Origin: Candidatus Latescibacterota bacterium
GTDB lineage: Bacteria > Latescibacterota > CBDCVA01
Assembly: GCA_965222935.1 (NCBI GenBank)
Contig: CBDCVA010000001.1
Span: forward strand, 132,093 to 196,092
DNA length: 64,000 bases
Reading direction: 5' to 3'
Below the pieces are notes generated by a model. That model did no database searches. It saw only the letters and a list, made by a program, of their open reading frames with translations, and was not told the origin of the DNA. Position 1 is the first letter of the stretch; each line of letters begins with the position of its first letter. Positions 4,349 through 40,424 of the stretch are shown here, piece by piece. The translations under genes were made by a program, and so were the position numbers.

Positions 4349-5061
4349 CGGGCGTCCTCGCTTTCCGTATCTACCAGTGACAGAACTTCCTTCAGCGCTG
4401 AGACCATAGCTCCTCGCCACTCCGCCTCCGCATCGGGACGGAGGGATTCATGTACAGCTTCTTCGTAGGGTACTCGAATCAGAACGGGATGCATCCCAAC
4501 CTGTGCTGCGCCTGTCAGTTCGCGGCTGCTTCCGTCCCCTACGTAGAGGCAGTCCTGCGGCCTCACGGCCAGCCGCTCGCAGGCCATCCGATAGATGCGT
4601 GGATCGGGCTTCTTGAAGCCCGCTGTACCCGAAAAGATGGCAACATCCACTAGCGGAGCCAAGGGGGTGTCTCGCCACAGAAACGCAACGTCCGGTCCAC
4701 AATCACTGATGAGTCCTATCTTGTAGCGTCCCGCTCGCAGCCGATTCAACGTCTCCACGGCGCCCCATCGCGGTGTGAGAGAACGCCGTATAAAATCAAG
4801 CCGTATTTGGGTGGCCGCCGTGATCCGATCACTCTCCAATGGCAGGCCGAGCGTCTCGCAGATGTGCTCAAGGTTGGCCTCTATGGTCGCAAAGAACGCC
4901 GTTTCCCGCGGACGTGATGTCTCGCTCCACAGGCGGTGAAAGTCATCCCCAGGCACAGAAAGCGCAGACGCCATTGCCGAGCGCGAACGCTGGATGTCCT
5001 GAAATGACTGGAGGTCAACCAAGGTTCCGAAGAGATCAAAAATGACGGCGTCATAGGTCAT
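4345..5061 (-). CDS. HAD-superfamily hydrolase embedded in the arg operon
   Basis: N-terminal DxFGTL (VIFDLFGTLVD) and C-terminal GDGSSRE HAD motifs. Confidence 0.7.
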   Translation of the reverse strand: MTYDAVIFDLFGTLVDLQSFQDIQRSRSAMASALSVPGDDFHRLWSETSRPRETAFFATIEANLEHICETLGLPLESDRITAATQIRLDFIRRSLTPRWGAVETLNRLRAGRYKIGLISDCGPDVAFLWRDTPLAPLVDVAIFSGTAGFKKPDPRIYRMACERLAVRPQDCLYVGDGSSRELTGAAQVGMHPVLIRVPYEEAVHESLRPDAEAEWRGAMVSALKEVLSLVDTESEDAR

Positions 5062-5104
5062 GGTTCAGTTGCCCTTGTGCTGCGATGGCGCATCGCCTCA
5101 GCCT

Positions 5105-5917
5105 TCACCCGGCGGCGGCAACCACCGTTCCGAGCCCTTCTTCGGAAGTGCCGTCCGCCGCATCGCCCGCGAGTTGGCGGCACAGGCTGCCCGCACCGGC
5201 CCAGCCCATGATGTGGACCCGCCCCACGCCCGCTTCCACGGCATCCCGCGCGGACCTGAGCTTGGGGATCATGCCCCCGGTGATCTGTCCGGCGGCGACC
5301 AACGCTTCCACCTCGCCGGTCAGGATGCGTCGCTTGAGCGCACCTTCGACATAGACCCCGGGCACGTCGGTCACGAAGACCAGGTCGTCGCAGCCGAGCG
5401 CGACGCCGATCGCCAGCGCCGCCTCGTCCGCGTTGACGTTGAACGCCTCCCAATCGGGGCCCGCCGAGATGGGCGAGACCACGGGTATGATCCCGTGGCA
5501 CAGGAGAAGGCGCAGAAGCTCGGCATCCACCCGCTCGATCCGGCCCACGCGCCCCAGGTCCTCCGTCGGGTGACGCTTGGGCTCGGCGCGCAGAAGCCCC
5601 ATGTCGCGCCCGCTGAGGCCGATTGCCCGTCCGCCCAGGGCGCCGAGCCTCCCCACGATCCGTTTGTTCACGGCGCCTGAGAGCACCATCTCCACGGCCC
5701 CCACGGCCCTCCCATCGGTCACTCGCAAGCCATCCACGAAGCGGAACGGTAAGCCCAGCCTCTCCAGAATCCTGCCGATCTCCGCCCCGCCCCCGTGGAC
5801 GATGACGCGCCCTCGAGGCGCCAGGGCCACGATGTCGCCGAGCTGTTCATCGAGGGTGGCCTCGTCGTCGGTGGCCGTTCCGCCGAGCTTGACGACGGTT
5901 GTGGGCGGACCGCTCAT
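5105..5917 (-). CDS. argB: acetylglutamate kinase
   Basis: Amino-acid kinase fold (VVKLGG…HGGG…), about 270 aa. Confidence 0.85.
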   Translation of the reverse strand: MSGPPTTVVKLGGTATDDEATLDEQLGDIVALAPRGRVIVHGGGAEIGRILERLGLPFRFVDGLRVTDGRAVGAVEMVLSGAVNKRIVGRLGALGGRAIGLSGRDMGLLRAEPKRHPTEDLGRVGRIERVDAELLRLLLCHGIIPVVSPISAGPDWEAFNVNADEAALAIGVALGCDDLVFVTDVPGVYVEGALKRRILTGEVEALVAAGQITGGMIPKLRSARDAVEAGVGRVHIMGWAGAGSLCRQLAGDAADGTSEEGLGTVVAAAG

Positions 5918-6960
5918 CCGCCCAGCGGGACGACCGGCGTCGCGGTGAAGCCGGTCACCTCCGGCAGATCGAACATCAGGTTCATGTTCTGGATCGCGGT
6001 ACCGACCGCACCTTTGCCCAGGTTATCGATCACCGAAACGACGATGGCCATCCTCGCCCCCTCGACGCGTTTGACGCCGACATCGCAGAAGTTCGTCTCG
6101 GCGACGTGCGAGGCCTCCGGGAGCTCGGCCCCCTTGACGCGGACGAACGGCTCCTCGGCGTAGAGCGTCCACACCGCGTCGACGAGCGTCTCGGTGCCGA
6201 CATCCTCGGCGAGCGGGACGTAGAGGGTCGAGAGCATGCCCCGGTTGAGCGGCACGCGCTGCGGGGTGAACACGACCCGCACATCGCGGCCGGCGAGCTT
6301 GGCCAGTTCCTGCTCCATTTCGCCGACGTGCTTGTGGATGCGCCCGGCCTTGTACGCGGCGATGTTGTCGTGCGCATCCACGAACAGAAGCTCGTGCAAA
6401 AGCTTACGCCCCGCGCCGCTGATGCCGCTCTTGGCGTCCACGATGATGGGTTCGTCCGCCACGAGCCCGGTTCGCATGAAAGGTGCCAGACCCAGGAGGA
6501 CGGAGGTCGGGTAGCAGCCGGGGTTGGCCACGAGCCGTGCGCTCCGAATCACCTCGCGGTTGAGTTCGGGGAGACCGTAGACGGCCTCGGCGAGAAGCTC
6601 GGGCGCGTCGTGCGCCCGGCCGTACCACCGCTCGAACGCCTCGGCGGAATCCAGTCGGAAATCGCCCGGCAGGTCGATGAGTTGAGTGCCGCGTTCGAGC
6701 AGGGCCGGCGCCAATCGGGTTGAGAGAAAATCGGGCACGCAACTGAAGAGGCAATCGGCCTCCTCGCGGAGGGCATCGCCGGAGGGGATCAACTCGAAAT
6801 CCCCGACGCCCCTGAGGCGCGGGTACACGTCGGAGAGGCGCTCGCCCGCGCTCTGTTCCGATGTCGCGAAGGCCAACTTCACCTCGGGATGGAGCGCCAA
6901 CTGCTCGACCAGCTCGCGTCCCACAAGGCCCGTCGCGCCCAGGATGCCCACTCGAATCAT
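5914..6960 (-). CDS. argC: N-acetyl-gamma-glutamyl-phosphate reductase
   Basis: N-terminal Rossmann GATGLVG, catalytic …NPGCYPT… region, 348 aa. Confidence 0.9.
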   Translation of the reverse strand: MIRVGILGATGLVGRELVEQLALHPEVKLAFATSEQSAGERLSDVYPRLRGVGDFELIPSGDALREEADCLFSCVPDFLSTRLAPALLERGTQLIDLPGDFRLDSAEAFERWYGRAHDAPELLAEAVYGLPELNREVIRSARLVANPGCYPTSVLLGLAPFMRTGLVADEPIIVDAKSGISGAGRKLLHELLFVDAHDNIAAYKAGRIHKHVGEMEQELAKLAGRDVRVVFTPQRVPLNRGMLSTLYVPLAEDVGTETLVDAVWTLYAEEPFVRVKGAELPEASHVAETNFCDVGVKRVEGARMAIVVSVIDNLGKGAVGTAIQNMNLMFDLPEVTGFTATPVVPLGG

Positions 6961-7451
6961 CTCGCCCCCCTCGACCGTTCGATCCCTCGAATTCGCCCTG
7001 CCAACTGCTCACCATCCCGCGTCGTCCGCACGATCACCAAAAGCGTGTCGTCTCCGGCCACCGTCCCCAGGACATCCGGCCACTGTGCGCCGTCGATCGC
7101 CGCCGCGACCGCCTGCGCGGAGCCCGCCGCCGCCTTGACCACCACCAGGTTGCCCGCGTTCTCGACGCTCCGCACGTCGTCGCGAACGGCACGCCGGAGC
7201 CTCTCGGGGCCGCCATTAGGATCGACCTCCTCGGGCCTGACGTAGCGATACCCCCCCTGTGGAGCCGGGGCGCGAACGACGCCCAGCGCCCTCAGGTCCC
7301 TCGAGAGCGTGCCCTGGCTCACCGGGTGCCCCAGCGCTCCGAGCGCAGCGCCCAGCGCCCGTTGTGTACCGAGTTGGCGGGCCGCGATGACCTCGAGGAT
7401 GACGCGGCGGCGGGCGTCCTTGTCGCGATTCGTTCCGTGCGCTGGGCTCAT
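6957..7451 (-). CDS. argR: arginine repressor
   Basis: Winged-helix N-terminus (…SQGTLSRDLRALG…) plus a C-terminal oligomerisation/arginine-binding domain. First gene after an ARG-box promoter. Confidence 0.85.
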   Translation of the reverse strand: MSPAHGTNRDKDARRRVILEVIAARQLGTQRALGAALGALGHPVSQGTLSRDLRALGVVRAPAPQGGYRYVRPEEVDPNGGPERLRRAVRDDVRSVENAGNLVVVKAAAGSAQAVAAAIDGAQWPDVLGTVAGDDTLLVIVRTTRDGEQLAGRIRGIERSRGAR

Positions 7452-7461
7452 GGCGATGGAA

Positions 7462-7510
7462 AAGTATGTTAATTCATATTCTATGAATAATTATTTTGAA
7501 TATAAGGGCA
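7462..7510 (-). promoter_or_regulatory. ARG box operator(s) for ArgR, an AT-rich block in GC-rich DNA
   Basis: TATGAATAATTATTTTGA (7482-7499) fits TNTGAATWWWWATTCANW at about 16/18 positions. Inverted repeat ATTCATA-ttc-TATGAAT at 7472-7488. Located at or after the -10 element. Confidence 0.6.
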
Positions 7511-7528
7511 ATCCGCCGTGCTGTCAAG
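7499..7528 (-). promoter_or_regulatory. sigma70-type promoter of the arg operon (TTGACA-N17-TATATT on the minus strand)
   Basis: Minus-strand read: TTGACAgcacggcggattgccctTATATT, directly followed by the ARG box and argR. Confidence 0.6.
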
Positions 7529-7538
7529 GGGGCGAAAG

Positions 7539-8477
7539 CTACGCCGGGGCTTGCGGGGTCTCTTCGCGGGCCAGGAGCGCGTCTGTGAAGCGTCTGGGGT
7601 CGAATTCGTCGAGGTCGTCGAGGCCTTCGCCCAGGCCGACGAGCAGGATGGGGATGTTTAGTGCCTCGGCAATGGCGATCACCGCTCCCCCTTTCGCCGT
7701 CCCGTCGAGTTTCGCGAGCGCGAGTCCCGTGACGCCCACGGCATCGTGGAAGGCCCGGGCCTGTGCCAGCGCATTCTGGCCCGTGGTCGCATCCAGGACG
7801 AGCAGGACCTCGTGCGGCGCTTCCGGGAGGGCGCGCCCGAGCACGCGGTGAATTTTCTTCAACTCGTCCATCAGATTCCGTTGGGTGTGGAGGCGGCCCG
7901 CCGTGTCCACGATGCAGACATCGGTCCCGCGCGCCGTGGCAGCCGAGATGGCGTCGAAGGCGACGGAGGCGGCATCGGCTCCGGGCTGGTGCCCCACCCA
8001 CTGCACGTGCGCGCGACGCGCCCAGATCTCCAACTGGTCGATGGCTGCGGCACGGAAGGTGTCCGAGGCGGCCAGAAGCACCCGCCGTCCCTCCCTTGCG
8101 AACCGCGCGGCGATCTTGCCGACCGTCGTCGTCTTTCCGGCGCCGTTCGCGCCGCAGACCATGATCACCTTCGGGGGCTGCGTGACGTCGAAGAAGCTGC
8201 GCTCGGGTCGCCGCGCTTCGAGGAGGGTCAGGAGCTGGCTGCGCAAGGCGTCCCAGAGGGCCTTCTCCCCTCGCTCGTCCGCTCGACGCACGGCTTCGAT
8301 CAGGCGTTCCGCCGCGTTCAGTCCGATGTCGGCCTCCAGGAGGAGGTCCTCCATCGCCTCCGCCGCGGCCGCATCGAACGGCTCTCCGCCGCCCAGCAAC
8401 TCATCCAGCCGCGAGATGATGCCGCCTCGCGTCTTGGCCAGCCCTGCCCGCAGGCGCGTCAAGACGTCATCGAGCAT
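7539..8477 (-). CDS. ftsY: signal recognition particle receptor FtsY
   Basis: SRP54-type GTPase: GANGAGKTTT P-loop, DTAGR, TKLD motifs. Confidence 0.9.
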   Translation of the reverse strand: MLDDVLTRLRAGLAKTRGGIISRLDELLGGGEPFDAAAAEAMEDLLLEADIGLNAAERLIEAVRRADERGEKALWDALRSQLLTLLEARRPERSFFDVTQPPKVIMVCGANGAGKTTTVGKIAARFAREGRRVLLAASDTFRAAAIDQLEIWARRAHVQWVGHQPGADAASVAFDAISAATARGTDVCIVDTAGRLHTQRNLMDELKKIHRVLGRALPEAPHEVLLVLDATTGQNALAQARAFHDAVGVTGLALAKLDGTAKGGAVIAIAEALNIPILLVGLGEGLDDLDEFDPRRFTDALLAREETPQAPA

Positions 8478-8528
8478 GATGAAAGGTCTGAGCCTTGGGT
8501 TGGGGTCTGTGGCCTTTCCGGTTCGGCG

Positions 8529-9635
8529 CTACGAGGACATGGGGAGAAGCGTGGCGGGCCGGGGTTCGGATTTCGGGTGCGTCGTGGGGGCGTCACCGTT
8601 CGAGGGACCGTCGCGGCCGTTCCGCCCGCCCGTGACGGCCTGTTGGGCCCATCCGGCGAGCGTGCGCCCCAGGCCCTCCCGACGGTAGATGAGCTCGTAC
8701 TCGCCCCGGCAGTTGTACCAGCACTTGTCGCACGTGTTGGTCGCCTGCGCGTGGTGGAGCCTGCGCAGCAGCTCCTCGGGGGGCGTCGAGAGGATATTGC
8801 CCACGGGCTCGAAGATGGCCTCGACGCACTTGGCCACGTCTCCGCTCTCGTCGATGTTGAGCAGCGAGCGGCCGGCGGTGCAGCCGCTCAGGCCGCCCGC
8901 GAGCGCGTAGTCGTCGAACCGGCGCAGGAAGGCATCGCTGGACGTGAAATTCGAGTAGCGGCGCTTGAGCTCCATCAGGCGCGCGGAGGGGAGGTCCTCA
9001 TGGTTCATCTCGCTCGTCGCACCGATCTTGATGTCGCAGTAGGGCTGGACCATGAAGGACGCGCCCGCCTCCTGCGCCAGTTGGATCAAGGGCTCCATTT
9101 CGTCGAGGTTGTCGCGGGACAGCACGCACATCAGGTTCACGAACTGGCCCTTCTTCGTGCGCTCCTCGCTGAAGATGTGCAGGGCGCGCACGGCGCGCTC
9201 CCATGTGCCCGGCATCCCGCGCAGGGTGTCGTGGGTCTCGCTCTTCACCGAGTCGATGGAGATGCTGATCCCCATGGCTCCGGCCCCGAAGATCGCCCGC
9301 GCTTTCTCGGGTGTGGCGAACCAGCCGTTGGAGGTCAGTGTGACGAAGTGATCGCGCGCGAGGATGGAGACGATGTCGGGCAGGTCCGGCCGTACGAACG
9401 GCTCACCGCCCGCAATGTTGACGATCATCGTGCCGATCTGCGCCAGATTGGCTCCGGCGGTCTCGAACTGTTCGGTGGTCAACTCCCGCGACTTGTCCTG
9501 GCGGAAATCCCAGTAGCCGCAGAAGGTGCAGCGTAGATTGCAGCGGTAGGTCGGCTGCCAAGTGCAGATGAGCGGGCGCCGCTTGGCGTAGGAGACGAGC
9601 GCCTTCGTGGACTTGCGTAACCCGGAGAACCCCAT
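8529..9635 (-). CDS. radical SAM/SPASM-domain protein, substrate unknown
   Basis: CNLRCTFC (CX3CX2C) near the N-terminus. C-terminal Cys cluster …CDKCWYNCRGE… typical of SPASM/twitch auxiliary Fe-S clusters. Confidence 0.7.
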   Translation of the reverse strand: MGFSGLRKSTKALVSYAKRRPLICTWQPTYRCNLRCTFCGYWDFRQDKSRELTTEQFETAGANLAQIGTMIVNIAGGEPFVRPDLPDIVSILARDHFVTLTSNGWFATPEKARAIFGAGAMGISISIDSVKSETHDTLRGMPGTWERAVRALHIFSEERTKKGQFVNLMCVLSRDNLDEMEPLIQLAQEAGASFMVQPYCDIKIGATSEMNHEDLPSARLMELKRRYSNFTSSDAFLRRFDDYALAGGLSGCTAGRSLLNIDESGDVAKCVEAIFEPVGNILSTPPEELLRRLHHAQATNTCDKCWYNCRGEYELIYRREGLGRTLAGWAQQAVTGGRNGRDGPSNGDAPTTHPKSEPRPATLLPMSS

Positions 9636-9856
9636 AGCGGCTTTCCTCGACGGATGCCCGGATCAGATATCGAACCGGGGGCAGCCGACCGGCGTTGTGT
9701 CTGTACCGTACTGCTCGTGGACGTTCGCGTGTGAGACTCAATATCAGTGCATTCGGACGGGAGCGCAACTGCTGCTCGTGGTGGGCCGATTCACCTTGTG
9801 GGTCGTGGAGCGCGCTTGCTTGACCGCATCCGGGGCTCAAAGTATATTACCCGAGC

Positions 9857-11017
9857 GTGAATTCGGTGGGTCACATTTTTGGAGCTTACCCCTTGCAAGA
9901 CCGGCGCTCAGCCCGCCCGCGAGGCTTCGGCTTTGCAGCCGCCTGGGTCTGGCTGATAGCCCTGGGTCTGCTCCTGGGGTGTCCCGCCTCCGCCATCGCT
10001 GACGCTGACGCCGATTCGCTCCTTTACGACGCCTACATCACGCGGATCGAGCAGGATTCTTCGGACGTCGACGCTTTCCTGGGCCTAGCGCGGCTCTTCA
10101 TCAAGTACGATTACTTCGATGACGCCGCACTCGCCTGCCTGTACGCGCGCGATCTCTACCCCGACGATACGGCCTTGCACGTGAAGACGTATCTGCTTCT
10201 GAGCCGTGGTCATGGGGAGAAGGGCTATCTGCGCGAGGCGGTTCAGCATTATGCGGCGGCGCTGGAACTGCGCCCGGACGACGCGGCACTCTTCGCGGAA
10301 CTGGGCGGGCTCTACGAGGAGTACGGCCAGTACGCGGACGCCCTCGAAGCGTACGCGGAGGCGGCGGGGCGCCAATCGAACGTGCGCTACCACACGGCGA
10401 TGGGCCGCATGTACGCGGCGCAGGACCTGTACTTCGAGGCCGTCGGCGAGCTTCGCTACGCTCTGGTGCTGGATTCCACGTACGCCGAGGCGCATCACGC
10501 GCTCGGCGTAGCGTTCTACGAGCGCGAGTTCGTGGATAAGGCGATAGGGGCTTTCGAGGAAGCCATCCGTCTCAAGCCCGGCCTGCCGGAGGCGCGCCAC
10601 GCTCTGGGCCTGGCCTACGAGGACCGCGGGTTCTACGACAAGGCCATCGCCCAACAGAAGCTCGCCCTTAAGCGCTTGGCCCATTGGCCGGAGGTTCACA
10701 ACGATCTGGGGAACGCCTACTTGCGCAAGGCGATGCTCAGACAGAACCAGCGCAGGGAGGTCGATGCGGAATCCCTGCTGAATCAGGCGATCAAGAAATA
10801 TAAGGACGCCCTGGCTTTAGACCCCGAGTTCGCCGAGGTGCACCACAACCTGGGCCTGACCCATTCGCGCGGGGGCCGTTATACGAAGGCGGTCAAGGCT
10901 TACCAGCGCTACCTCGAGCTCAATCCCGGCGCCAAGGACTATCAGCAGGTCAAGGATCGCATCGTCGAGCTCACCGAGAAGCGGACCGCAGGGCCCGACG
11001 GCGCGCCGAAGCGGTAA
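9857..11017 (+). CDS. secreted TPR-repeat protein
   Basis: Signal peptide with a Cys (LLLGCPASA), then multiple 34-aa TPR repeats (…AYxxLGxxYxxxGxYxxAxxxYxxAL…). Confidence 0.7.
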   Translation: MNSVGHIFGAYPLQDRRSARPRGFGFAAAWVWLIALGLLLGCPASAIADADADSLLYDAYITRIEQDSSDVDAFLGLARLFIKYDYFDDAALACLYARDLYPDDTALHVKTYLLLSRGHGEKGYLREAVQHYAAALELRPDDAALFAELGGLYEEYGQYADALEAYAEAAGRQSNVRYHTAMGRMYAAQDLYFEAVGELRYALVLDSTYAEAHHALGVAFYEREFVDKAIGAFEEAIRLKPGLPEARHALGLAYEDRGFYDKAIAQQKLALKRLAHWPEVHNDLGNAYLRKAMLRQNQRREVDAESLLNQAIKKYKDALALDPEFAEVHHNLGLTHSRGGRYTKAVKAYQRYLELNPGAKDYQQVKDRIVELTEKRTAGPDGAPKR

Positions 11018-34096: not shown

Positions 34097-34417
34097 GTGA
34101 GCGACGAGGCTATCGCCCGCTGGAAAGCTCAGGTCGCGAAATTTCCGACGAGCGAACTGCCGCGGTTCAGCCTTGCGAAGGCGTACTTGGATGCGGAAGC
34201 GTACGAGGAAGCGGTCGGGACCCTGCGAGAGGCCGTCGTCATGAAGCCGGACTGGATGGCCGCCAAGATCATGCTCGCCCGCACGTTGATCACCCTTGAG
34301 CAGTACGACGAGGCGCGCCCCGTCCTGCAAGAGAGCCGGATGCTGGCTCATCAACAGGGCCACGCGAGCCCCATCGAGGAAATCAACGAACTCATGGACC
34401 AGTTGCCGGAGGGCTAG
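34097..34417 (+). CDS. small TPR-like protein
   Basis: GTG start after a GGAGGGAGG ribosome-binding site. Two TPR-like helical hairpins, 106 aa. Confidence 0.45.
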   Translation: MSDEAIARWKAQVAKFPTSELPRFSLAKAYLDAEAYEEAVGTLREAVVMKPDWMAAKIMLARTLITLEQYDEARPVLQESRMLAHQQGHASPIEEINELMDQLPEG

Positions 34418-34472
34418 GGCCGCTATCGCGGTGCTCTTGCCGGCGGATGGGATCAAGCTCTGGTGCCGAGAG

Positions 34473-35231
34473 ATGAGAGCGACGGGTAGGGCCCCTGCAA
34501 ACGCCCGAACGCCGGGCCTGGGATTCCTGGAGCACGGGTGCATTGCACTGGTGGTCGCTGCGGTGGGTTTCGGTGCCTGTGGCGGGGTGGACGAGGTGGC
34601 GATGCGCACGCTCGCCGCACGGTACGTGGAGGCACGGGTGCGCGGAGACTACCCGGCCATGCACGGCCTGCTCTCGAAAGTGGATCGGATCAGGAAGCCG
34701 CGAGAGAAGTTCGTGGGAGAGATCAGCGCGCTCTACGCCGACCCGCGCATCCAGGCCATGCAACGGGCCGAGGTGCAAGCCTTCCAGCTCGAAAAGGTCG
34801 AACTGGTCGAGACGGGCGGGGAGTTGTCTCGCATGACCGTCCGGTACCGCGCACCGGACCGCGCGCGGATCGTCGCGCTGGCGGAGCCCACCCTCGCCGA
34901 GCTCGATAGCTCCATGATCCCCCAGGGCCTTCTGGAGAGCGTCGCCTCCGAGCTCGCATACGATCCGGAGGCGCTTGCGGCGGGTTCCGTCGAGCAGCGG
35001 CGCGTGCGCGCCATCGCTCACCTTCGACGCCAGTCCGAGTGGCTTGCCTACCGCAACAAGAAGACCATCGCCGTCTTGAACGATCTCGTAGCGCGTGACG
35101 AGGTGCCGGTGACCTCACGGGCCGAGACCCTGTGGCTGCGCAACGATAAGGGCGGATGGAAGGTCATGCTCGATTGGGACACAGAACAGCGGCGCGCCAG
35201 AGACCTGCTTCACGCCTCCGCAGGCTCCTGA
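34473..35231 (+). CDS. hypothetical lipoprotein
   Basis: Signal peptide with a Cys (VAAVGFGACGG). No recognisable catalytic motif. Confidence 0.45.
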   Translation: MRATGRAPANARTPGLGFLEHGCIALVVAAVGFGACGGVDEVAMRTLAARYVEARVRGDYPAMHGLLSKVDRIRKPREKFVGEISALYADPRIQAMQRAEVQAFQLEKVELVETGGELSRMTVRYRAPDRARIVALAEPTLAELDSSMIPQGLLESVASELAYDPEALAAGSVEQRRVRAIAHLRRQSEWLAYRNKKTIAVLNDLVARDEVPVTSRAETLWLRNDKGGWKVMLDWDTEQRRARDLLHASAGS

Positions 35232-35486
35232 GGGGATGATGGCGCATCCGGCGGGATCATTCGGCCGCTTTCCGCAGTATCCGAGGAGCGGTTCTTGACG
35301 GGGCTTCGGGGGCGCGGCCGCTCGCGGCGGGCTAGGGACGGCTCGGGTCGCGGCAGCGAGGGGTGGGAGCATCCTTGGGGGGCCGGACCCGTTAGGGGCT
35401 TAGAAGCTTTCTATGGGCTTCGATATTCGGGCGATCTCCCGAAAATGGCCGGATCGGAGCGAAACTCAATCAAGAGGGGCCACTGC

Positions 35487-35588
35487 ATGAGGGACCTGTC
35501 TACAATGCTCATCCGTGTTGTCGGTGGTGCTTGGGGCGTGCTCCTGGTCTTGGGCCTGAGGTGGCTTGGCCTTAAAGCCCGCTCTTGA
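35487..35588 (+). CDS. 33-aa hydrophobic peptide (MRDLSTMLIRVVGGAWGVLLVLGLRWLGLKARS), candidate small membrane toxin or leader
   Basis: AAGAGGGG ribosome-binding site 7 nt upstream of the ATG. One TM helix plus a basic tail. Lies in a ~57% GC patch. Confidence 0.35.
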   Translation: MRDLSTMLIRVVGGAWGVLLVLGLRWLGLKARS

Positions 35589-35779
35589 TCTTGACCCCGC
35601 CATAGAAGGAGGCACCGTCATACTCACCCCTGTTGTCCTGGGTTCACTAGTGGGCTCACTAATAGGGTTCACCCTGAGCTTCGTTCCTGTTGCCGGTGCC
35701 ATAGGCCGCGCTGCTCGTATTGACAAGATAGCCTCAAAAGGTTCCCTGCCTGTCCGGGCTTCTTGCAGGAGACAAGGCT

Positions 35780-36136
35780 ATGGAGGCGGCTGTGCGCGGG
35801 GCCCCTCTTGCGACAAGAACGGGATTGAAGGCCGGGGCGTTGGGCGTTCTGTTTGGAGCTCACGGCGTAGCTCGGTGGGTGGGTGGAGAGGTCGGAGAGA
35901 GCGTGTCCGGTGTGCTCATCAAAGCTGGCCTTGTTGTTGCCTTTGTCTTGCTCTATGTATGGGCGTTTAGGAGTATGGGATGGAGTCGCACGAAATCCAT
36001 AATGCTCACCGCCGTTGTCGGGTGGTCAGTGGCCTTGCTCTTGTTCTTATTCCTGAGGGCGTTTGGCCTTGACGGGCTTGTTCCCGACTTTCTCTTGATA
36101 GCCTTCGGACACTCAGAGCTTCGTGTCTCCCCTTGA
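35780..36136 (+). CDS. small membrane protein (118 aa, 2-3 TM helices), unknown function
   Basis: AGGAGA ribosome-binding site 7 nt upstream. Hydrophobic segments LVVAFVLLYVWAF and IMLTAVVGWSVALLLFLFL. T-rich third codon positions unlike the host. Confidence 0.4.
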   Translation: MEAAVRGAPLATRTGLKAGALGVLFGAHGVARWVGGEVGESVSGVLIKAGLVVAFVLLYVWAFRSMGWSRTKSIMLTAVVGWSVALLLFLFLRAFGLDGLVPDFLLIAFGHSELRVSP

Positions 36137-36340
36137 TACGGCCGTCTGGTGAGCGCGTCAGTGAGTCCCCCGGAGAGGGGGGCGCGCGAGGCATCGAGCG
36201 CGGGGGGTGAACCGCCCTGCATGAGCTGGCACCGCGAGGCGAGGGTAGCGAGGGCGGGGGGCAAGACCGAGCGCCCTAACGTGTAGCTGGTGTGCGGTGG
36301 ATCGCGTCCTCTTGCGGTCGCCAACAGAACGCGGGGAGCT

Positions 36341-37444
36341 ATGACCATGACGTCACAGAGCCTTGAGGAGATTCGTGTCTACGTCGGGACTTACACGAGC
36401 GGCGGGAGCGAGGGGATTTACCTCTATCGCATGGACCCATCCACCGGCGCGCTGGAGCGCGGCCGCGCTGTGGCTCGGGACATCGCCAATCCCTCCTTCG
36501 TGGCCCTCGATCCGCAGGGGCGAACCCTCTATTCCGTCGAGGAAACGGGGCACTCGGACGACGAGCCAAGCGGCGCTGTGAGCGCGTTCTCCATCGACCC
36601 AGAGACCGGAGACCTGACGCACTTGAACCGACAGCCCTCGGGCGGAGACGGTCCGTGCCATCTCAGCGTCGATGGAACGGGTCGATACGTTCTTGTGGCG
36701 AACTACGGGTCGGGCAGCGCCTCCATGCTTCCCGTCCTCGAGGGCGGAGGACTGGGCGAAGCCACCGGCTTCGTTCAGCATAAAGGCAACAGCGTTCTGG
36801 AACGGCAGGCGGGCCCTCATGCGCATTCCATCAACCTGGACCCCGGCAACCGCTATGCGTTCGTGGCGGACCTTGGGCTCGACAGGGTCATGATCTACCG
36901 GCTGGACCTCGACCGGGGGAAGCTGATCCCCGGCGATGAACCCTGGGTAGAAGCTCAGGCCGGGGCGGGGCCGCGCCATTTCGATTTCCATCCCAACGGC
37001 AGATACGCCTATCTCATCAACGAGATCGGCAACACGATGACGGCGTTTGCGTACGATGAAACGCGCGGGGCGCTCAGGGAAGTGCAGACCGCCTCGACGC
37101 TACCGGAGGCTTTTTCGGGCACCAGCTACACGGCGGATGTGCACGTCGCTCCATCGGGCAAGTTCGTGTATGGCTCCAATCGCGGCCATGACAGCATCGC
37201 GATCTTTGGCGTCGACGAGGGTACGGGCAGGATGACCCCGCTCGGCTGTGAGCCGACTCGGGGCCGGTCCCCGCGCAACTTCGGTATCGACCCGACCGGC
37301 ACGTTTCTCCTAGCGGCCAATCAGGAGACCGATAACGTGGTGACCTTCCGGATGGATCAGGGGACGGGTGCGCTCGTGCCGACGGGCTACGTGACCGAAA
37401 TCCCGGCGCCCGTCTGCCTGGAGATGACCTCTATCGCTTCATAG
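36341..37444 (+). CDS. lactonase, 7-bladed beta-propeller (6-phosphogluconolactonase / 3-carboxymuconate-cyclase-like)
   Basis: Repeated …YVxNxGS…/…PRHF…/…YxxNE… propeller blades typical of PF10282. Confidence 0.75.
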   Translation: MTMTSQSLEEIRVYVGTYTSGGSEGIYLYRMDPSTGALERGRAVARDIANPSFVALDPQGRTLYSVEETGHSDDEPSGAVSAFSIDPETGDLTHLNRQPSGGDGPCHLSVDGTGRYVLVANYGSGSASMLPVLEGGGLGEATGFVQHKGNSVLERQAGPHAHSINLDPGNRYAFVADLGLDRVMIYRLDLDRGKLIPGDEPWVEAQAGAGPRHFDFHPNGRYAYLINEIGNTMTAFAYDETRGALREVQTASTLPEAFSGTSYTADVHVAPSGKFVYGSNRGHDSIAIFGVDEGTGRMTPLGCEPTRGRSPRNFGIDPTGTFLLAANQETDNVVTFRMDQGTGALVPTGYVTEIPAPVCLEMTSIAS

Positions 37445-37459
37445 TTTCTTCATACGCGC

Positions 37460-37488
37460 TGGACATCTCTATCTTGCTCGGCTACAAT
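37460..37488 (+). promoter_or_regulatory. sigma70-like promoter TGGACA-N17-TACAAT followed by a pyrimidine-rich leader
   Basis: Read directly: TGGACAtctctatcttgctcggcTACAAT, then TTCTTTTGTTTTTTGTCTTTCCTTCTTTCTTGC. Sits upstream of the DUF1640-like ORF and the IolE-like gene. Confidence 0.45.
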
Positions 37489-37552
37489 CCGAAGTTCTTT
37501 TGTTTTTTGTCTTTCCTTCTTTCTTGCATGGAATCGTGCGTCTACGCTTGCA

Positions 37553-37768
37553 TTCGACACACATAAGGCCGTGAAGGCGCTCAAGGAATCCGGGGCCGCG
37601 GTTGCCTCGGTCGGAGATGTCATGAGCGAACATGCTGCGACGAAGGCCGATCTTCAAACGCTCGAACAGCGCATGATGGCGCACATGTCCGGCAGGTTCG
37701 AGACGCTCCATGCAGGCTCGGATGCATCGATAGATCGGGAACCCTTCAACCCGAGGTGTAGAGCATGA
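37553..37768 (+). CDS. DUF1640-like small coiled-coil protein, start codon unclear
   Basis: In-frame FDTHKAVKALKESG…ATKADLQTLEQRM resembles the DUF1640 N-terminus. The only canonical start (GTG 37571) lies inside the conserved block. No ATG/GTG/TTG between the upstream stop (37442) and 37571. Confidence 0.3.
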   Translation, partial: FDTHKAVKALKESGAAVASVGDVMSEHAATKADLQTLEQRMMAHMSGRFETLHAGSDASIDREPFNPRCRA

Positions 37769-39758: not shown

Positions 39759-40025
39759 ATGGACATCTTCGTTACAGGCGTCATCGAGCGGCAAAAGGAT
39801 GACTGGCTCGCATTCTGCCCCGAACTGGAGATCAACACCTTCGGGGCTACCGAAGAAGATGCACGGGAAAGCCTTGAGGAGGCCATCATCGGGTATCTGC
39901 AAACGGCTGAGGCCAGTAATAGACTCGAAGAACTACGCCATGTGTTAGAGACGCGCTCGGCCCAGCAATTGTCCTTCAAGAAGGACGTGGAGGAAGATGA
40001 GTGGCTTGCGTCTCCAGTAGGTTAA
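39759..40025 (+). CDS. hicB: HicB-family antitoxin
   Basis: …VIERQKDDWLAFCPELEINTFGATEEDARESLEEAI… fits HicB_lk_antitox. GGAGGAGGGGG ribosome-binding site. About 55% GC. Confidence 0.7.
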   Translation: MDIFVTGVIERQKDDWLAFCPELEINTFGATEEDARESLEEAIIGYLQTAEASNRLEELRHVLETRSAQQLSFKKDVEEDEWLASPVG

Positions 40026-40050
40026 CACGACCGATGGGCTGGGAAATTTT

Positions 40051-40296
40051 GTGCCTCATCTCCCGAATCTGACGTGGAAGCAGTTCGTAAAGTTGGCAGA
40101 AATCAAGGGCTATGTGTTTGCGAGAGTCAGAGGAAGCCACGTCATCTATGAGAATCCCGAGGTTCCGTTGCCCGAGGGTATCATTCCCATTCCACGAAAG
40201 AAAAACATCCCCAAAGACACACGCCGCGCCTTACTACGACAACTTGGCGTCAGCCCCGACGATGTACAAATCTTCTTAGAAACCAAGCAAATCTAA
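40051..40296 (+). CDS. hicA: HicA-family mRNA interferase toxin
   Basis: YcfA/HicA pattern …KQFVKLAEIKGYVFARVRGSHVIYEN…PIPRKKNIPKDTRRALLRQLGV. About 47% GC. Confidence 0.75.
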   Translation: MPHLPNLTWKQFVKLAEIKGYVFARVRGSHVIYENPEVPLPEGIIPIPRKKNIPKDTRRALLRQLGVSPDDVQIFLETKQI

Positions 40297-40424
40297 CGAA
40301 GCGGGACAAGTCCATAAGGCCCTAGATTGCAGTAGGGCTGTCATGTAGACATTCAATCAGCCACACCTTCGCCTTACTCCAACTCCCCCAACCACAGGTA
40401 CCCTTTTAGAAAGTCGTGATCGGC

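Follow-up and report, generated by a model that had tools for sequence, protein, structure and literature searches.

The window, meaning the whole 64-kb stretch of DNA analysed here, carries a segment of 1,081 bp at positions 35235–36315 (61.8% GC, no strand assigned), whose limits were drawn by blastn and alignment against the related contigs L040–L043 and L046. On its 5' side lies the gene of a 209-aa hypothetical protein (34602–35231, + strand), with its stop codon 3 bp 5' of the segment. On its 3' side, as context, lies the gene of a 7-bladed beta-propeller lactonase (36347–37444, + strand). The nearest relatives of this lactonase are 52–59% identical and are spread over metagenome-assembled genomes of Acidobacteriota, Chloroflexota and Armatimonadota. 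The inserted segment occupies what is a 26-bp spacer between the two genes in relatives of about 95% identity. The left junction reads CTCCTGAGGG followed by GATGATGG, the right junction reads CTCTTGCGG followed by TCGCCAACAG, and only the 2 bp GG are ambiguous.

The insert comprises a core of lower GC between two GC-rich, non-coding arms. The left arm (35235–35471, + strand; about 70% GC) showed no coding signal, no promoter above the scan threshold and an ordinary fold (z = 0.14 against shuffles). The right arm (36137–36315, + strand) holds a CCCCC-GGAGA-GGGGG hairpin without a T-run at about 36165–36183, and its overall fold was also ordinary (z = 0.31). These arms bear on whether a structured non-coding RNA, or a regulatory leader of the lactonase gene, lies behind the GC dip, as the position of the insert directly upstream of that gene might suggest. 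However, no Rfam match was obtained at E up to 1, the fold energies of both arms equal those of shuffles, and the relatives manage with a 26-bp spacer. This explanation is scarcely credible. The sequence-only reading of this DNA had itself named a conserved non-coding RNA behind the GC dip as the result that would speak against it, and none was found.

The low-GC patch was first delimited at 35450–36140. Its GC content is 57.6%, compared to 65.6% across the whole window, and corresponds to the 4th percentile among 690-bp windows of the 64-kb stretch, in which six further patches fall below 60% GC. The sequence-only reading was right that the patch is real, but drew its limits too narrowly. The flanks, given there as about 70% GC, are indeed at 69–72% in the immediate vicinity, yet they belong to the same inserted segment and lie above the window average. 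One 60-nt line had been put at about 45% GC, and the lowest line found in the recount has 48%. The T-rich third codon positions were confirmed, with 23–27% T in the patch ORFs versus 7–15% in neighbouring genes. GC3 is 0.51–0.67 in the core ORFs versus 0.75–0.91 in host genes (genome GC3 about 0.8). The coding-sense strand of the patch is G+T-rich and A-poor, and stop codons are rare because the strand has only 15.6% A. The longest stop-free run of the window within the patch, 136 codons, was equalled in 12% of dinucleotide shuffles and is not significant. Composition on its own leaves the patch within chance. It is the comparison with relatives that makes it a real, discrete feature, namely the 1,081-bp insertion.

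Four relatives (L040–L043) with about 95% nucleotide identity on both sides join window position 35234 straight to 36316, and exactly the same empty junction was found in L046. Four other assemblies of the same lineage carry a nearly identical insert, whole in L001, L002 and L003 and partial in L045. The check for conservation in related genomes that had been proposed with the sequence-only reading is thus answered on both sides, by presence in these four and absence from the five empty contigs. Between the window and L002 there are zero substitutions from 34854 to 36366, where about 7 would be expected from the flank divergence of 0.44–0.54%. This zero divergence across the insert and its edges indicates a young allele or recent spread. 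L046 is the sole near-identical empty contig; it is mosaic and could be an assembly chimera.

The same comparison bears on the direction of the change. The segment could be ancestral and precisely deleted in the relatives, with its low GC arising from relaxed selection on a dying gene. The outgroup shows no empty site, the 2-bp GG microhomology at the junction is what a deletion would also leave, and the gene is visibly decaying by frameshifts, as described below. Against this stand the identical junction in four 95% relatives and in L046, and the zero divergence at the insert and its edges between strains that differ by about 0.5% elsewhere. A GC3 of 0.5–0.67 is also hard to reach by decay alone in a genome with a GC3 of about 0.8. 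Ancestry with deletion is therefore improbable, and we infer that the segment was gained here and not lost in the relatives. This polarity is read with one outgroup contig, L044, which differs in content at the site, and with a near-identical empty contig, L046, that is possibly chimeric.

In L044, a more distant relative, genes for a P4-like integrase, AlpA and a primase/helicase-like protein follow directly after the orthologue of the 209-aa gene. Integrative elements therefore use the same site in this relative, as judged from one contig. The insert resembles this island in lying immediately downstream of the orthologous 209-aa gene; unlike integrase-mediated islands, it has no integrase-like ORF, recombinase or flanking direct (att) repeats, and its sequence showed no resemblance to that of the L044 island. 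At 1.08 kb, it is about 10 times smaller than the smallest integrase-mediated islands. Its ends carry neither terminal inverted repeats nor a target duplication beyond GG, the features by which an insertion sequence or MITE is recognised. No tRNA lies at the insertion site; Rfam at gathering thresholds returned only a tRNA-Ser for the whole window, and it lies elsewhere. A second copy of the insert was found neither elsewhere in the 64-kb window nor among 0.5 Mb of other loci. The segment probably stems from a mobile element, as its residue or as its cargo.

The ORFs and Shine-Dalgarno-like sites noticed in the sequence-only reading were all found again, and all features of the core lie on the + strand. 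A Shine-Dalgarno-like AAGAGGGG (35472–35479) stands 7 nt 5' of the ATG of orf33, which runs in frame 0 from the ATG at 35487 to the stop at 35586–35588 (35487–35588; MRDLSTMLIRVVGGAWGVLLVLGLRWLGLKARS) and encodes 33 aa with one transmembrane helix. A frame-1 coding segment follows at 35566–35739, with a long hydrophobic helix (TVILTPVVLGSLVGSLIGFTLSFVPVAGAIG) and then a basic loop. Within it, GAAGGAGG at 35605–35612 precedes the ATA at 35620 by 7 nt, and both paralogous copies have ATG at that position. A further Shine-Dalgarno-like site, AGGAGA (35767–35772), stands 7 nt 5' of the ATG of the 118-aa ORF118, which occupies frame 2 at 35780–36136 and has four predicted helices, two to three of them strongly hydrophobic. 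A TTG-initiated ORF of 134 aa (35566–35970) overlaps the end of orf33 and ORF118. Gene callers annotate ORF118 only and leave orf33 and the 134-aa ORF uncalled.

The change from frame 1 to frame 2 is marked by a homopolymer A-run at 35736–35739, which is the only difference between assemblies within the insert. It has four A in the window and in L003, and three in L001 and L002. The three-A version joins the frame-1 piece, which forms the N-terminal part, and ORF118 into one continuous ORF of 189 codons. Its stop-free run of 191 codons was reached by only 0.85% of dinucleotide shuffles. It had been suspected that the overlapping frames 35566–35970 and 35780–36136 hide a frameshift, and this switch bears the suspicion out. 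Either assembly could owe its A count to a homopolymer error of long reads; a pattern across the run gave no match in short-read metagenome contigs. The first frame change, from 0 to 1 at about 35574–35588, is common to all assemblies, including the independent JGI contig L045. Two other accounts of the A-run were set aside by reasoning from the sequence: programmed +1 frameshifting at AAA-G, for which no stimulatory context is visible, and phase variation, for which a 3–4-nt run is too short for slipped-strand switching.

A host-trained codon model along the core favours frame 0, then 1, then 2, and rejects the 35737–35967 part of the 134-aa ORF. The tail of this ORF (35740–35970), rich in Arg, Cys and Gly, scores best under the shifted-frame codon model; it is an out-of-frame read-through of ORF118 and non-coding. 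The host-codon coding signal is weak, with 0.0–0.17 nats per codon versus 0.2–0.3 in neighbouring genes (120-nt windows). Beyond these ORFs, nothing in the insert gave a coding signal.

The products of the core are predicted to insert into the membrane. Their Kyte-Doolittle hydropathy peaks reach 1.9–2.5, with 1.9 for orf33. A single-sequence AlphaFold2 model of ORF118 shows four helices (pLDDT 71.7), and the loop charges read from the sequence alternate at about −2, +3, −2, +3 and −2, as the positive-inside rule predicts. The predicted topology is N-in, C-out. Moreover, the core contains an internal duplication. A 70-bp direct repeat has copy A in orf33 (35504–35573) and copy B inside ORF118 (36001–36070; IMLTAVVGWSVALLLFLFLRAFGL). 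The copies are 73% identical (z of about 10 against shuffles), and their peptides are 50% identical over 28 aa. Both are in frame and keep the hydrophobic pattern. A second, weaker and collinear match links 35659–35709 with 36095–36145. The single transmembrane helix of orf33 is a diverged paralogue of the last such helix in ORF118, and orf33 is not an independent conserved peptide gene.

No homologue of these products was found across 15 billion proteins, Pfam, NCBIfam, PHROGs, PADLOC, PDB, Rfam, phages, plasmids and metagenomes. A word-indexed search of 5.8 billion clusters with ORF118 and the fused sequence gave the self-match only, as did a full HMMER search of 1.84 billion representatives. 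Queries for the family scans (Pfam, NCBIfam, PHROGs and PADLOC) were orf33, ORF118, the 134-aa ORF and the two fused sequences of 189 and 215 aa. The only matches in these family scans were sub-threshold ones to DUF3054, DUF2834 and KdpF. The two DUF families comprise small multi-helix membrane proteins of unknown function and resemble ORF118 in size and helix count. ORF118 matched DUF3054 with E = 0.029 and 15.2 bits (cut-off 25), and DUF2834 with E = 0.07 and 13.8 bits (cut-off 22.9). With the 189-aa query the DUF3054 match was lost and DUF2834 remained at 12.2 bits. Membership in either family was rejected, since these scores lie below the Pfam gathering thresholds and most likely express compositional similarity of transmembrane segments. 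PsbZ, the sole match of the PDB sequence search (E = 0.026), was set aside as a similarity in transmembrane composition.

Foldseek of the ORF118 model against BFVD and PDB gave no match with E below 1. Viral contigs contained nothing similar to the insert products, peptide patterns found no match in JGI metagenome contigs, and the phage and plasmid collections gave none by blastn and tblastn. ORF118 is a strict orphan. The sequence-only reading had recognised no family, and the protein, profile, structure and metagenome searches agree with it on this point.

The lack of homologues is also what would be expected if the segment were non-coding filler DNA from illegitimate recombination, with accidental ORFs on a G+T-rich, A-poor strand. 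With 15.6% A, stops are rare and the 136-codon run is not significant; moreover, the host-codon signal is weak, and orf33 and the 134-aa ORF were passed over by the gene callers. However, the frame preference of the codon model tracks the ORFs in order, the long stop-free run of the three-A version is rare in shuffles, and two Shine-Dalgarno sites are properly spaced from ATG codons. The helices have transmembrane length with loop charges that follow the positive-inside rule, and both copies of the 70-bp repeat stay in frame and retain the hydrophobic pattern. Filler DNA is an unlikely account of the segment.

The sequence-only reading had also likened the small ORFs to type I toxins. Under this explanation, membrane-damaging toxin peptides, with orf33 and possibly further helix modules among them, would be checked by an antisense RNA and would stabilise the insert. 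The size expected of a type I toxin, a hydrophobic single-helix ORF below about 60 aa with a ribosome-binding site, was found in orf33. In its generic shape it shares with Hok/Gef, Ldr, Ibs, TisB, ShoB and Fst/Ldr-like toxins a small single helix, a basic C-terminus, a strong Shine-Dalgarno site and a variable intergenic setting, here a strain-specific insert. The helix module is repeated in the insert, and loci of type I toxins often come as tandem repeats.

Unlike those toxins, orf33 gave no relevant match to a described toxin family, TxpA and others included, either in Pfam and NCBIfam with E-values up to 0.1 or in PADLOC with values up to 1, and no Rfam antitoxin RNA was found at the locus at E up to 1. 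No promoter-like site, antisense or sense, was detected on either strand by a consensus scan, which an unconventional promoter could escape, and the leader of orf33 shows no unusual RNA fold. The peptide was conserved nowhere in the searches. Furthermore, orf33 runs on past the frame change into coding-like sequence and shares homology with an internal helix of a protein of 118–189 aa. It resembles the N-terminal remnant of a gene truncated by a frameshift. A broken larger gene fits better than a stand-alone toxin because of this continuation and this match. The type I toxin reading found no support, and a toxin-antitoxin locus is doubtful at best.

The comparison to holins, made in the same reading, fared no better. 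A holin or another remnant of a prophage lysis cassette would account for small multi-helix membrane products with charged ends, and in L044 the orthologue of the upstream gene is directly followed by a P4-like integrative island. Phage holins (lambda S class I, the phage 21 S68 pinholin and the Pfam and PHROG families) are small, with one to four transmembrane helices and charged termini, like the insert products. However, no holin family was matched in Pfam or PHROGs, no structural match was found in BFVD or PDB, and nothing similar occurs in phage genomes or viral contigs. No endolysin, spanin or other phage gene lies in or beside the insert, which is not in a prophage; its neighbours are the hypothetical and lactonase genes. 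A holin is very improbable here.

The reading that we prefer, at a probability of roughly 65%, takes the patch as the core of an accessory insertion of 1,081 bp, strain-specific and recently gained, that carries a frameshift-split orphan gene for a membrane protein. Foreign DNA with a lower GC3 would have entered the 26-bp spacer between the hypothetical gene and the lactonase gene. It may encode, or may until recently have encoded, one polytopic inner-membrane protein of about 190–215 aa with five helices. This protein would have grown through internal duplication, orf33 and the segment after it corresponding to the 3' part of ORF118. In the window, the gene would be cut into three by two frame changes, into orf33 (frame 0), the frame-1 segment 35566–35739 and ORF118 (frame 2). 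The likely products would then be a 33-aa peptide with one helix, possibly a truncated frame-1 peptide, and a 118-aa protein from its own AGGAGA-ATG start. Our best guess at the cellular role is a dispensable, decaying cargo protein of a mobile element and not a host function. The earlier suggestion of a horizontally acquired membrane module is supported, since the module is absent from 95%-identical relatives, has an atypical GC3 and has no homologues.

A more speculative variant, to which we give little weight, describes the locus as an evolving proto-gene. The orphan would be built by duplication of a helix module, and the A-run would toggle between a split form (33 aa, a truncated piece and 118 aa) and a fused form of 189 aa. 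Alternatively, the one-helix peptides would be a new class of membrane toxin that lets a 1-kb islet without a recombinase persist and move between strains when its flanks recombine homologously.

A described class of accessory-genome indels consists of small genomic islets that are specific to a strain and carry lineage-specific ORFan genes. The decaying orphan insertion preferred here shares with them its presence or absence among very close relatives with an exact empty site, its short length, its lower GC and GC3, its lack of detectable homologues, its hydrophobic product and its decay by frameshifts. Like them, it adjoins a gene whose orthologue in a relative precedes a mobile element. Compared to the usual ORFan islets, it is unusually clean, being exact within a 26-bp spacer and free of recombinase, terminal repeats and target duplication, and its orphan gene shows an internal duplication as well as a site where assemblies differ by 1 nt. 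As accessory orphan DNA the insert is of an ordinary kind, and it is not a recognisable toxin or holin system.

For annotation, 35487–36136 should be recorded as a single disrupted orphan gene, without a call for the 134-aa ORF. ORF118 is the only plausible intact product of the locus. The locus opens no long-standing question. It does provide a well-resolved example of accessory orphan DNA entering a bacterial genome, with 1.08 kb placed within an otherwise conserved gene row. The orphan gene shows a visible internal duplication and ongoing frameshift decay, in an insert too young for substitutions between strains. In addition, the insert parts the lactonase gene from the gene that it directly follows in the relatives, and may alter lactonase expression.

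Four assemblies with ~95% identity to the window on both sides of the site (L040-L043) were obtained by fetching members from other contigs of the 90% protein clusters of neighbouring genes. In 4/4 of them, a spacer of 26 bp separated a 209/249-aa hypothetical gene from the lactonase gene downstream, and the alignment joined window position 35234 directly to 36316. Therefore, the window holds 1,081 extra bases (35235-36315) between the 209-aa hypothetical gene (34602..35231, + strand) and the lactonase gene (36347..37444, + strand). The insert begins 3 bp past the upstream stop codon. At the left junction CTCCTGAGGG passes into GATGATGG, and at the right junction CTCTTGCGG passes into TCGCCAACAG, with "GG" as the sole ambiguity.

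Conservation in relatives, proposed as a check in the sequence-only reading, was found in part. The insert was absent from L040-L043; it was present in the window and in three assemblies with 98.4-100% nucleotide identity to it (L001, L002 and L003), and its left part was found in the JGI contig L045. An assembly artefact can thus be excluded. A protein identical to the product of its 118-aa ORF (ORF118) was recorded in a handful of same-lineage contigs, L001 and L002 (ENA) and L003 (Logan). A further JGI contig (L046, 1-2679) was a mosaic with an empty site, a left flank 98.8% window-type and a right flank 99% L040-type. It may be a natural recombinant that changes type at the insertion site, or its assembly may be chimeric, and it was therefore given no weight as an empty site.

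The low-GC patch noticed earlier (35450-36140) had a GC content of 57.6%, matching the claimed value of about 57%, compared to 65.6% over the whole 64-kb window. It fell in the 4th percentile among 690-bp windows, and six further patches had GC below 60%. A low 60-nt line was present, but its lowest value was 48% in the report's register rather than about 45%. T occupied 23-27% of third codon positions in the patch ORFs compared to 7-15% in neighbouring genes, in agreement with the T-rich positions described. Since A makes up only 15.6% of the strand and the window's own 136-codon stop-free run was matched in length by 12% of dinucleotide shuffles, the patch is unremarkable on composition alone. 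The 200-nt windows on either side had 69-72% GC, as claimed (about 70%), but these flanks (35235-35471 and 36137-36315) align as part of the insert, and the patch reads as its low-GC core. A conserved noncoding RNA as the cause of the GC dip had been named as a refuting condition. When the two GC-rich arms were checked, Rfam gave no match at E values as high as 1, their fold energies equalled those of shuffles (z 0.14 and 0.31), and no coding signal was detected in six frames.

All of the described ORFs and their Shine-Dalgarno-like sites were found at the patch. A 33-codon ORF (orf33, frame 0) runs from ATG at 35487 to a stop at 35588, with AAGAGGGG at 35472-35479. A 134-aa TTG-initiated ORF in frame 1 spans 35566-35970, and ORF118 in frame 2 spans 35780-36136, with AGGAGA at 35767-35772. 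No sigma-70-like promoter or intrinsic terminator in the insert passed the scan. By eye, a weak TTAGAA-N16-GATATT (35400-35427, 8/12 consensus positions) and a hairpin, CCCCC-GGAGA-GGGGG, ~30 nt past the ORF118 stop were seen; both were given no weight as evidence.

Codon usage was modelled on 26 genes from the window, and the model favoured frame 0 at 35400-35519, frame 1 at 35580-35699 and frame 2 at 35760-36119. Orf33, ORF118 and the first 57 codons of the TTG ORF each scored better in frame than under either shifted model. Over the rest of the TTG ORF (35737-35967), a shifted model won. Thus, under this model the 134-aa ORF would be real only as far as ~35739, and the sequence-only reading was right that the two overlapping frames cannot both be coding.

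The switch from frame 1 to frame 2 coincides with the sole difference in the whole insert between the window and L001/L002. The window and L003 carry A4 at 35736-35739 (CCTCAAAAGG), and L001 and L002 carry A3 (CCTCAAAGG). In the A3 version, the frame-1 segment continues into ORF118 as a 189-codon ORF, and its 191-codon stop-free run was matched by only 0.85% of shuffles. Many SNPs are common to L001 and L002, which are therefore one strain assembled from two samples, and this makes A3 credible for that strain. The A4 of the window could reflect a genuine frameshift or a miscounted homopolymer; a pattern search across the A-run in JGI contigs gave no match. The switch from frame 0 to frame 1 (~35574-35588) was the same in all assemblies, including L045.

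An internal repeat was detected within the core. Positions 35504-35573 (orf33) and 36001-36070 (ORF118) were 73% identical, each copy in frame, with an alignment score of 42 compared to 19.1 ± 2.3 in shuffles (z about 10), and their peptides RDLSTMLIRVVGGAWGVLLVLGLRWLGL and RTKSIMLTAVVGWSVALLLFLFLRAFGL were 50% identical. A second, weaker collinear match linked 35659-35709 (frame 1, LIGFTLSFVPVAGAIGR) to 36095-36145 (frame 2, LIAFGHSELRVSP*YGR). Furthermore, the 18-nt motif ATRCTCAYC..GTTGTC recurred at 35620 (z only about 2), 7 nt past GAAGGAGG, with ATA where the other two copies have ATG. The left third of the core thus resembles a degraded second copy of the 3' part of ORF118, and the best reading of orf33 is as the truncated beginning of this copy.

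The conceptual uninterrupted product would be a ~215-aa protein with five hydrophobic helices (Kyte-Doolittle peaks 1.9-2.5). The single-sequence AlphaFold2 model of ORF118 showed four helices (pLDDT 71.7, pTM 0.51). Read from the sequence, the connecting segments LKPALDLDPAIEGG, RAARIDKIASK, GGEVGES and RSMGWSRTKS and the C-terminal tail carry net charges of about -2, +3, -2, +3 and -2, respectively. Such alternation follows the positive-inside rule of von Heijne and is the pattern for an N-in, C-out topology. It is the best internal sign of a genuine membrane protein, still encoded or encoded until recently, as opposed to random G+T-rich sequence.

The earlier statement that no family is recognisable was borne out. 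ORF118 matched only itself among 5.8 billion clusters and, in a full HMMER read, among 1.84 billion representatives. A query with the fused 215-aa sequence also retrieved itself alone. No match was obtained in viral contigs, JGI metagenomes, phage and plasmid records (DNA and protein level), Pfam, NCBIfam, PHROGs, PADLOC or PDB sequences, or by Foldseek against BFVD and PDB. The sub-threshold Pfam hits DUF3054 (15.2 bits) and DUF2834 (13.8 bits) were typical transmembrane-helix similarity and were not upheld with the longer query. The suggested type I toxin-like peptide finds agreement only in the generic shape of orf33; no family match or conservation was found, the scans gave neither a promoter-like site on either strand nor an Rfam RNA as signs of an antisense partner, and this candidate is unlikely. 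The holin-like alternative was also dropped, as neither family match nor gene context fitted.

No terminal inverted repeats or convincing direct repeats were found at the insert ends, and no tRNA or recombinase signature within it. A search of the window and of 0.5 Mb of fetched loci turned up no second copy. The insert is without any mark of a mobile element. In the distant outgroup contig L044, the gene orthologous to the 209-aa one is immediately followed by a P4-like integrase (domains Arm-DNA-bind_3, Phage_int_M and Phage_integrase), so this position is used by an integrative element in another lineage. That island also encodes an AlpA-type regulator and primase/helicase-like ORFs. No sequence shared by the insert and the L044 island was found. 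The island (4582-10581) starts with an AT-rich leader, includes zinc-finger/primase-like and P-loop helicase-like ORFs, and is cut by the contig end.

The window and L002 differed by 37 substitutions over 9.2 kb. No substitution occurred in 34854-36366 (1,513 bp; the insert plus ~380 bp left and ~50 bp right), where ~7 were expected (probability of zero roughly 7e-4), whereas the flanks differed by 0.44-0.54%. Therefore, the insert allele is younger than the divergence of the two strains; recent transfer is suggested, probably by homologous recombination of the flanks. A shared precise deletion in the relatives would be the alternative to gain. Gain is more likely, given the low GC3 of the insert (0.51-0.67 vs 0.75-0.91 for the genome), a junction that is the same in all relatives without it, and an allele without divergence between strains. 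The sole outgroup, L044, has 76% nucleotide identity (68% for its 209-aa protein), and its site is not empty.

Other variable sites were observed nearby. Just past the lactonase gene, a second variable low-GC (51-55%) intergenic stretch (37451-37708) measures 259 bp in the window and ~488 bp, with an 83-aa minus-strand ORF, in the 95% relatives; the two versions share no more than ~80 bp at the start, a short ACATRAGGCCGTGAAGGCGCT motif and ~19 bp at the end. From 39808 on, synteny with these relatives is lost: theirs are DUF7387, YdjC and aminotransferase genes, and in the window HicA is accompanied by a large minus-strand gene, whose L002 copy matches Pfam Type_ISP_C. A ~410-bp segment (~39956-40364) is missing in L002, another strain-level presence/absence difference. 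An 81-aa HicA_toxin ORF (~40051-40296) was called in L001 and L003, and L003 adds an 88-aa ORF upstream (~39759-40025). Two 1-nt indels between L002 and the window (32211 and 32254) lie near the 3' end of an SBP_bac_5-domain gene, whose called C-termini differ between L002 and L003; a local frameshift variant or several assembly errors may explain them. The reading frame of the 209-aa gene stays open ahead of its called start (34296-34601) and encodes there a hydrophobic stretch ending ...VGFGAC (...LSLGSC in the L044 orthologue), which resembles a lipoprotein signal peptide with lipobox. As relatives' versions are annotated as 214-249 aa, translation probably begins before 34602, and the product may be a lipoprotein.

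The feature is a young, strain-specific 1,081-bp accessory insertion carrying a predicted orphan membrane-protein gene that is internally duplicated and frameshift-disrupted. Our working view is that, in the window strain, no product other than ORF118 is plausibly intact, and that the orphan gene is dispensable cargo or a residue of horizontally transferred DNA. The insert is a further example of the well-known class of lineage-specific ORFan islets.
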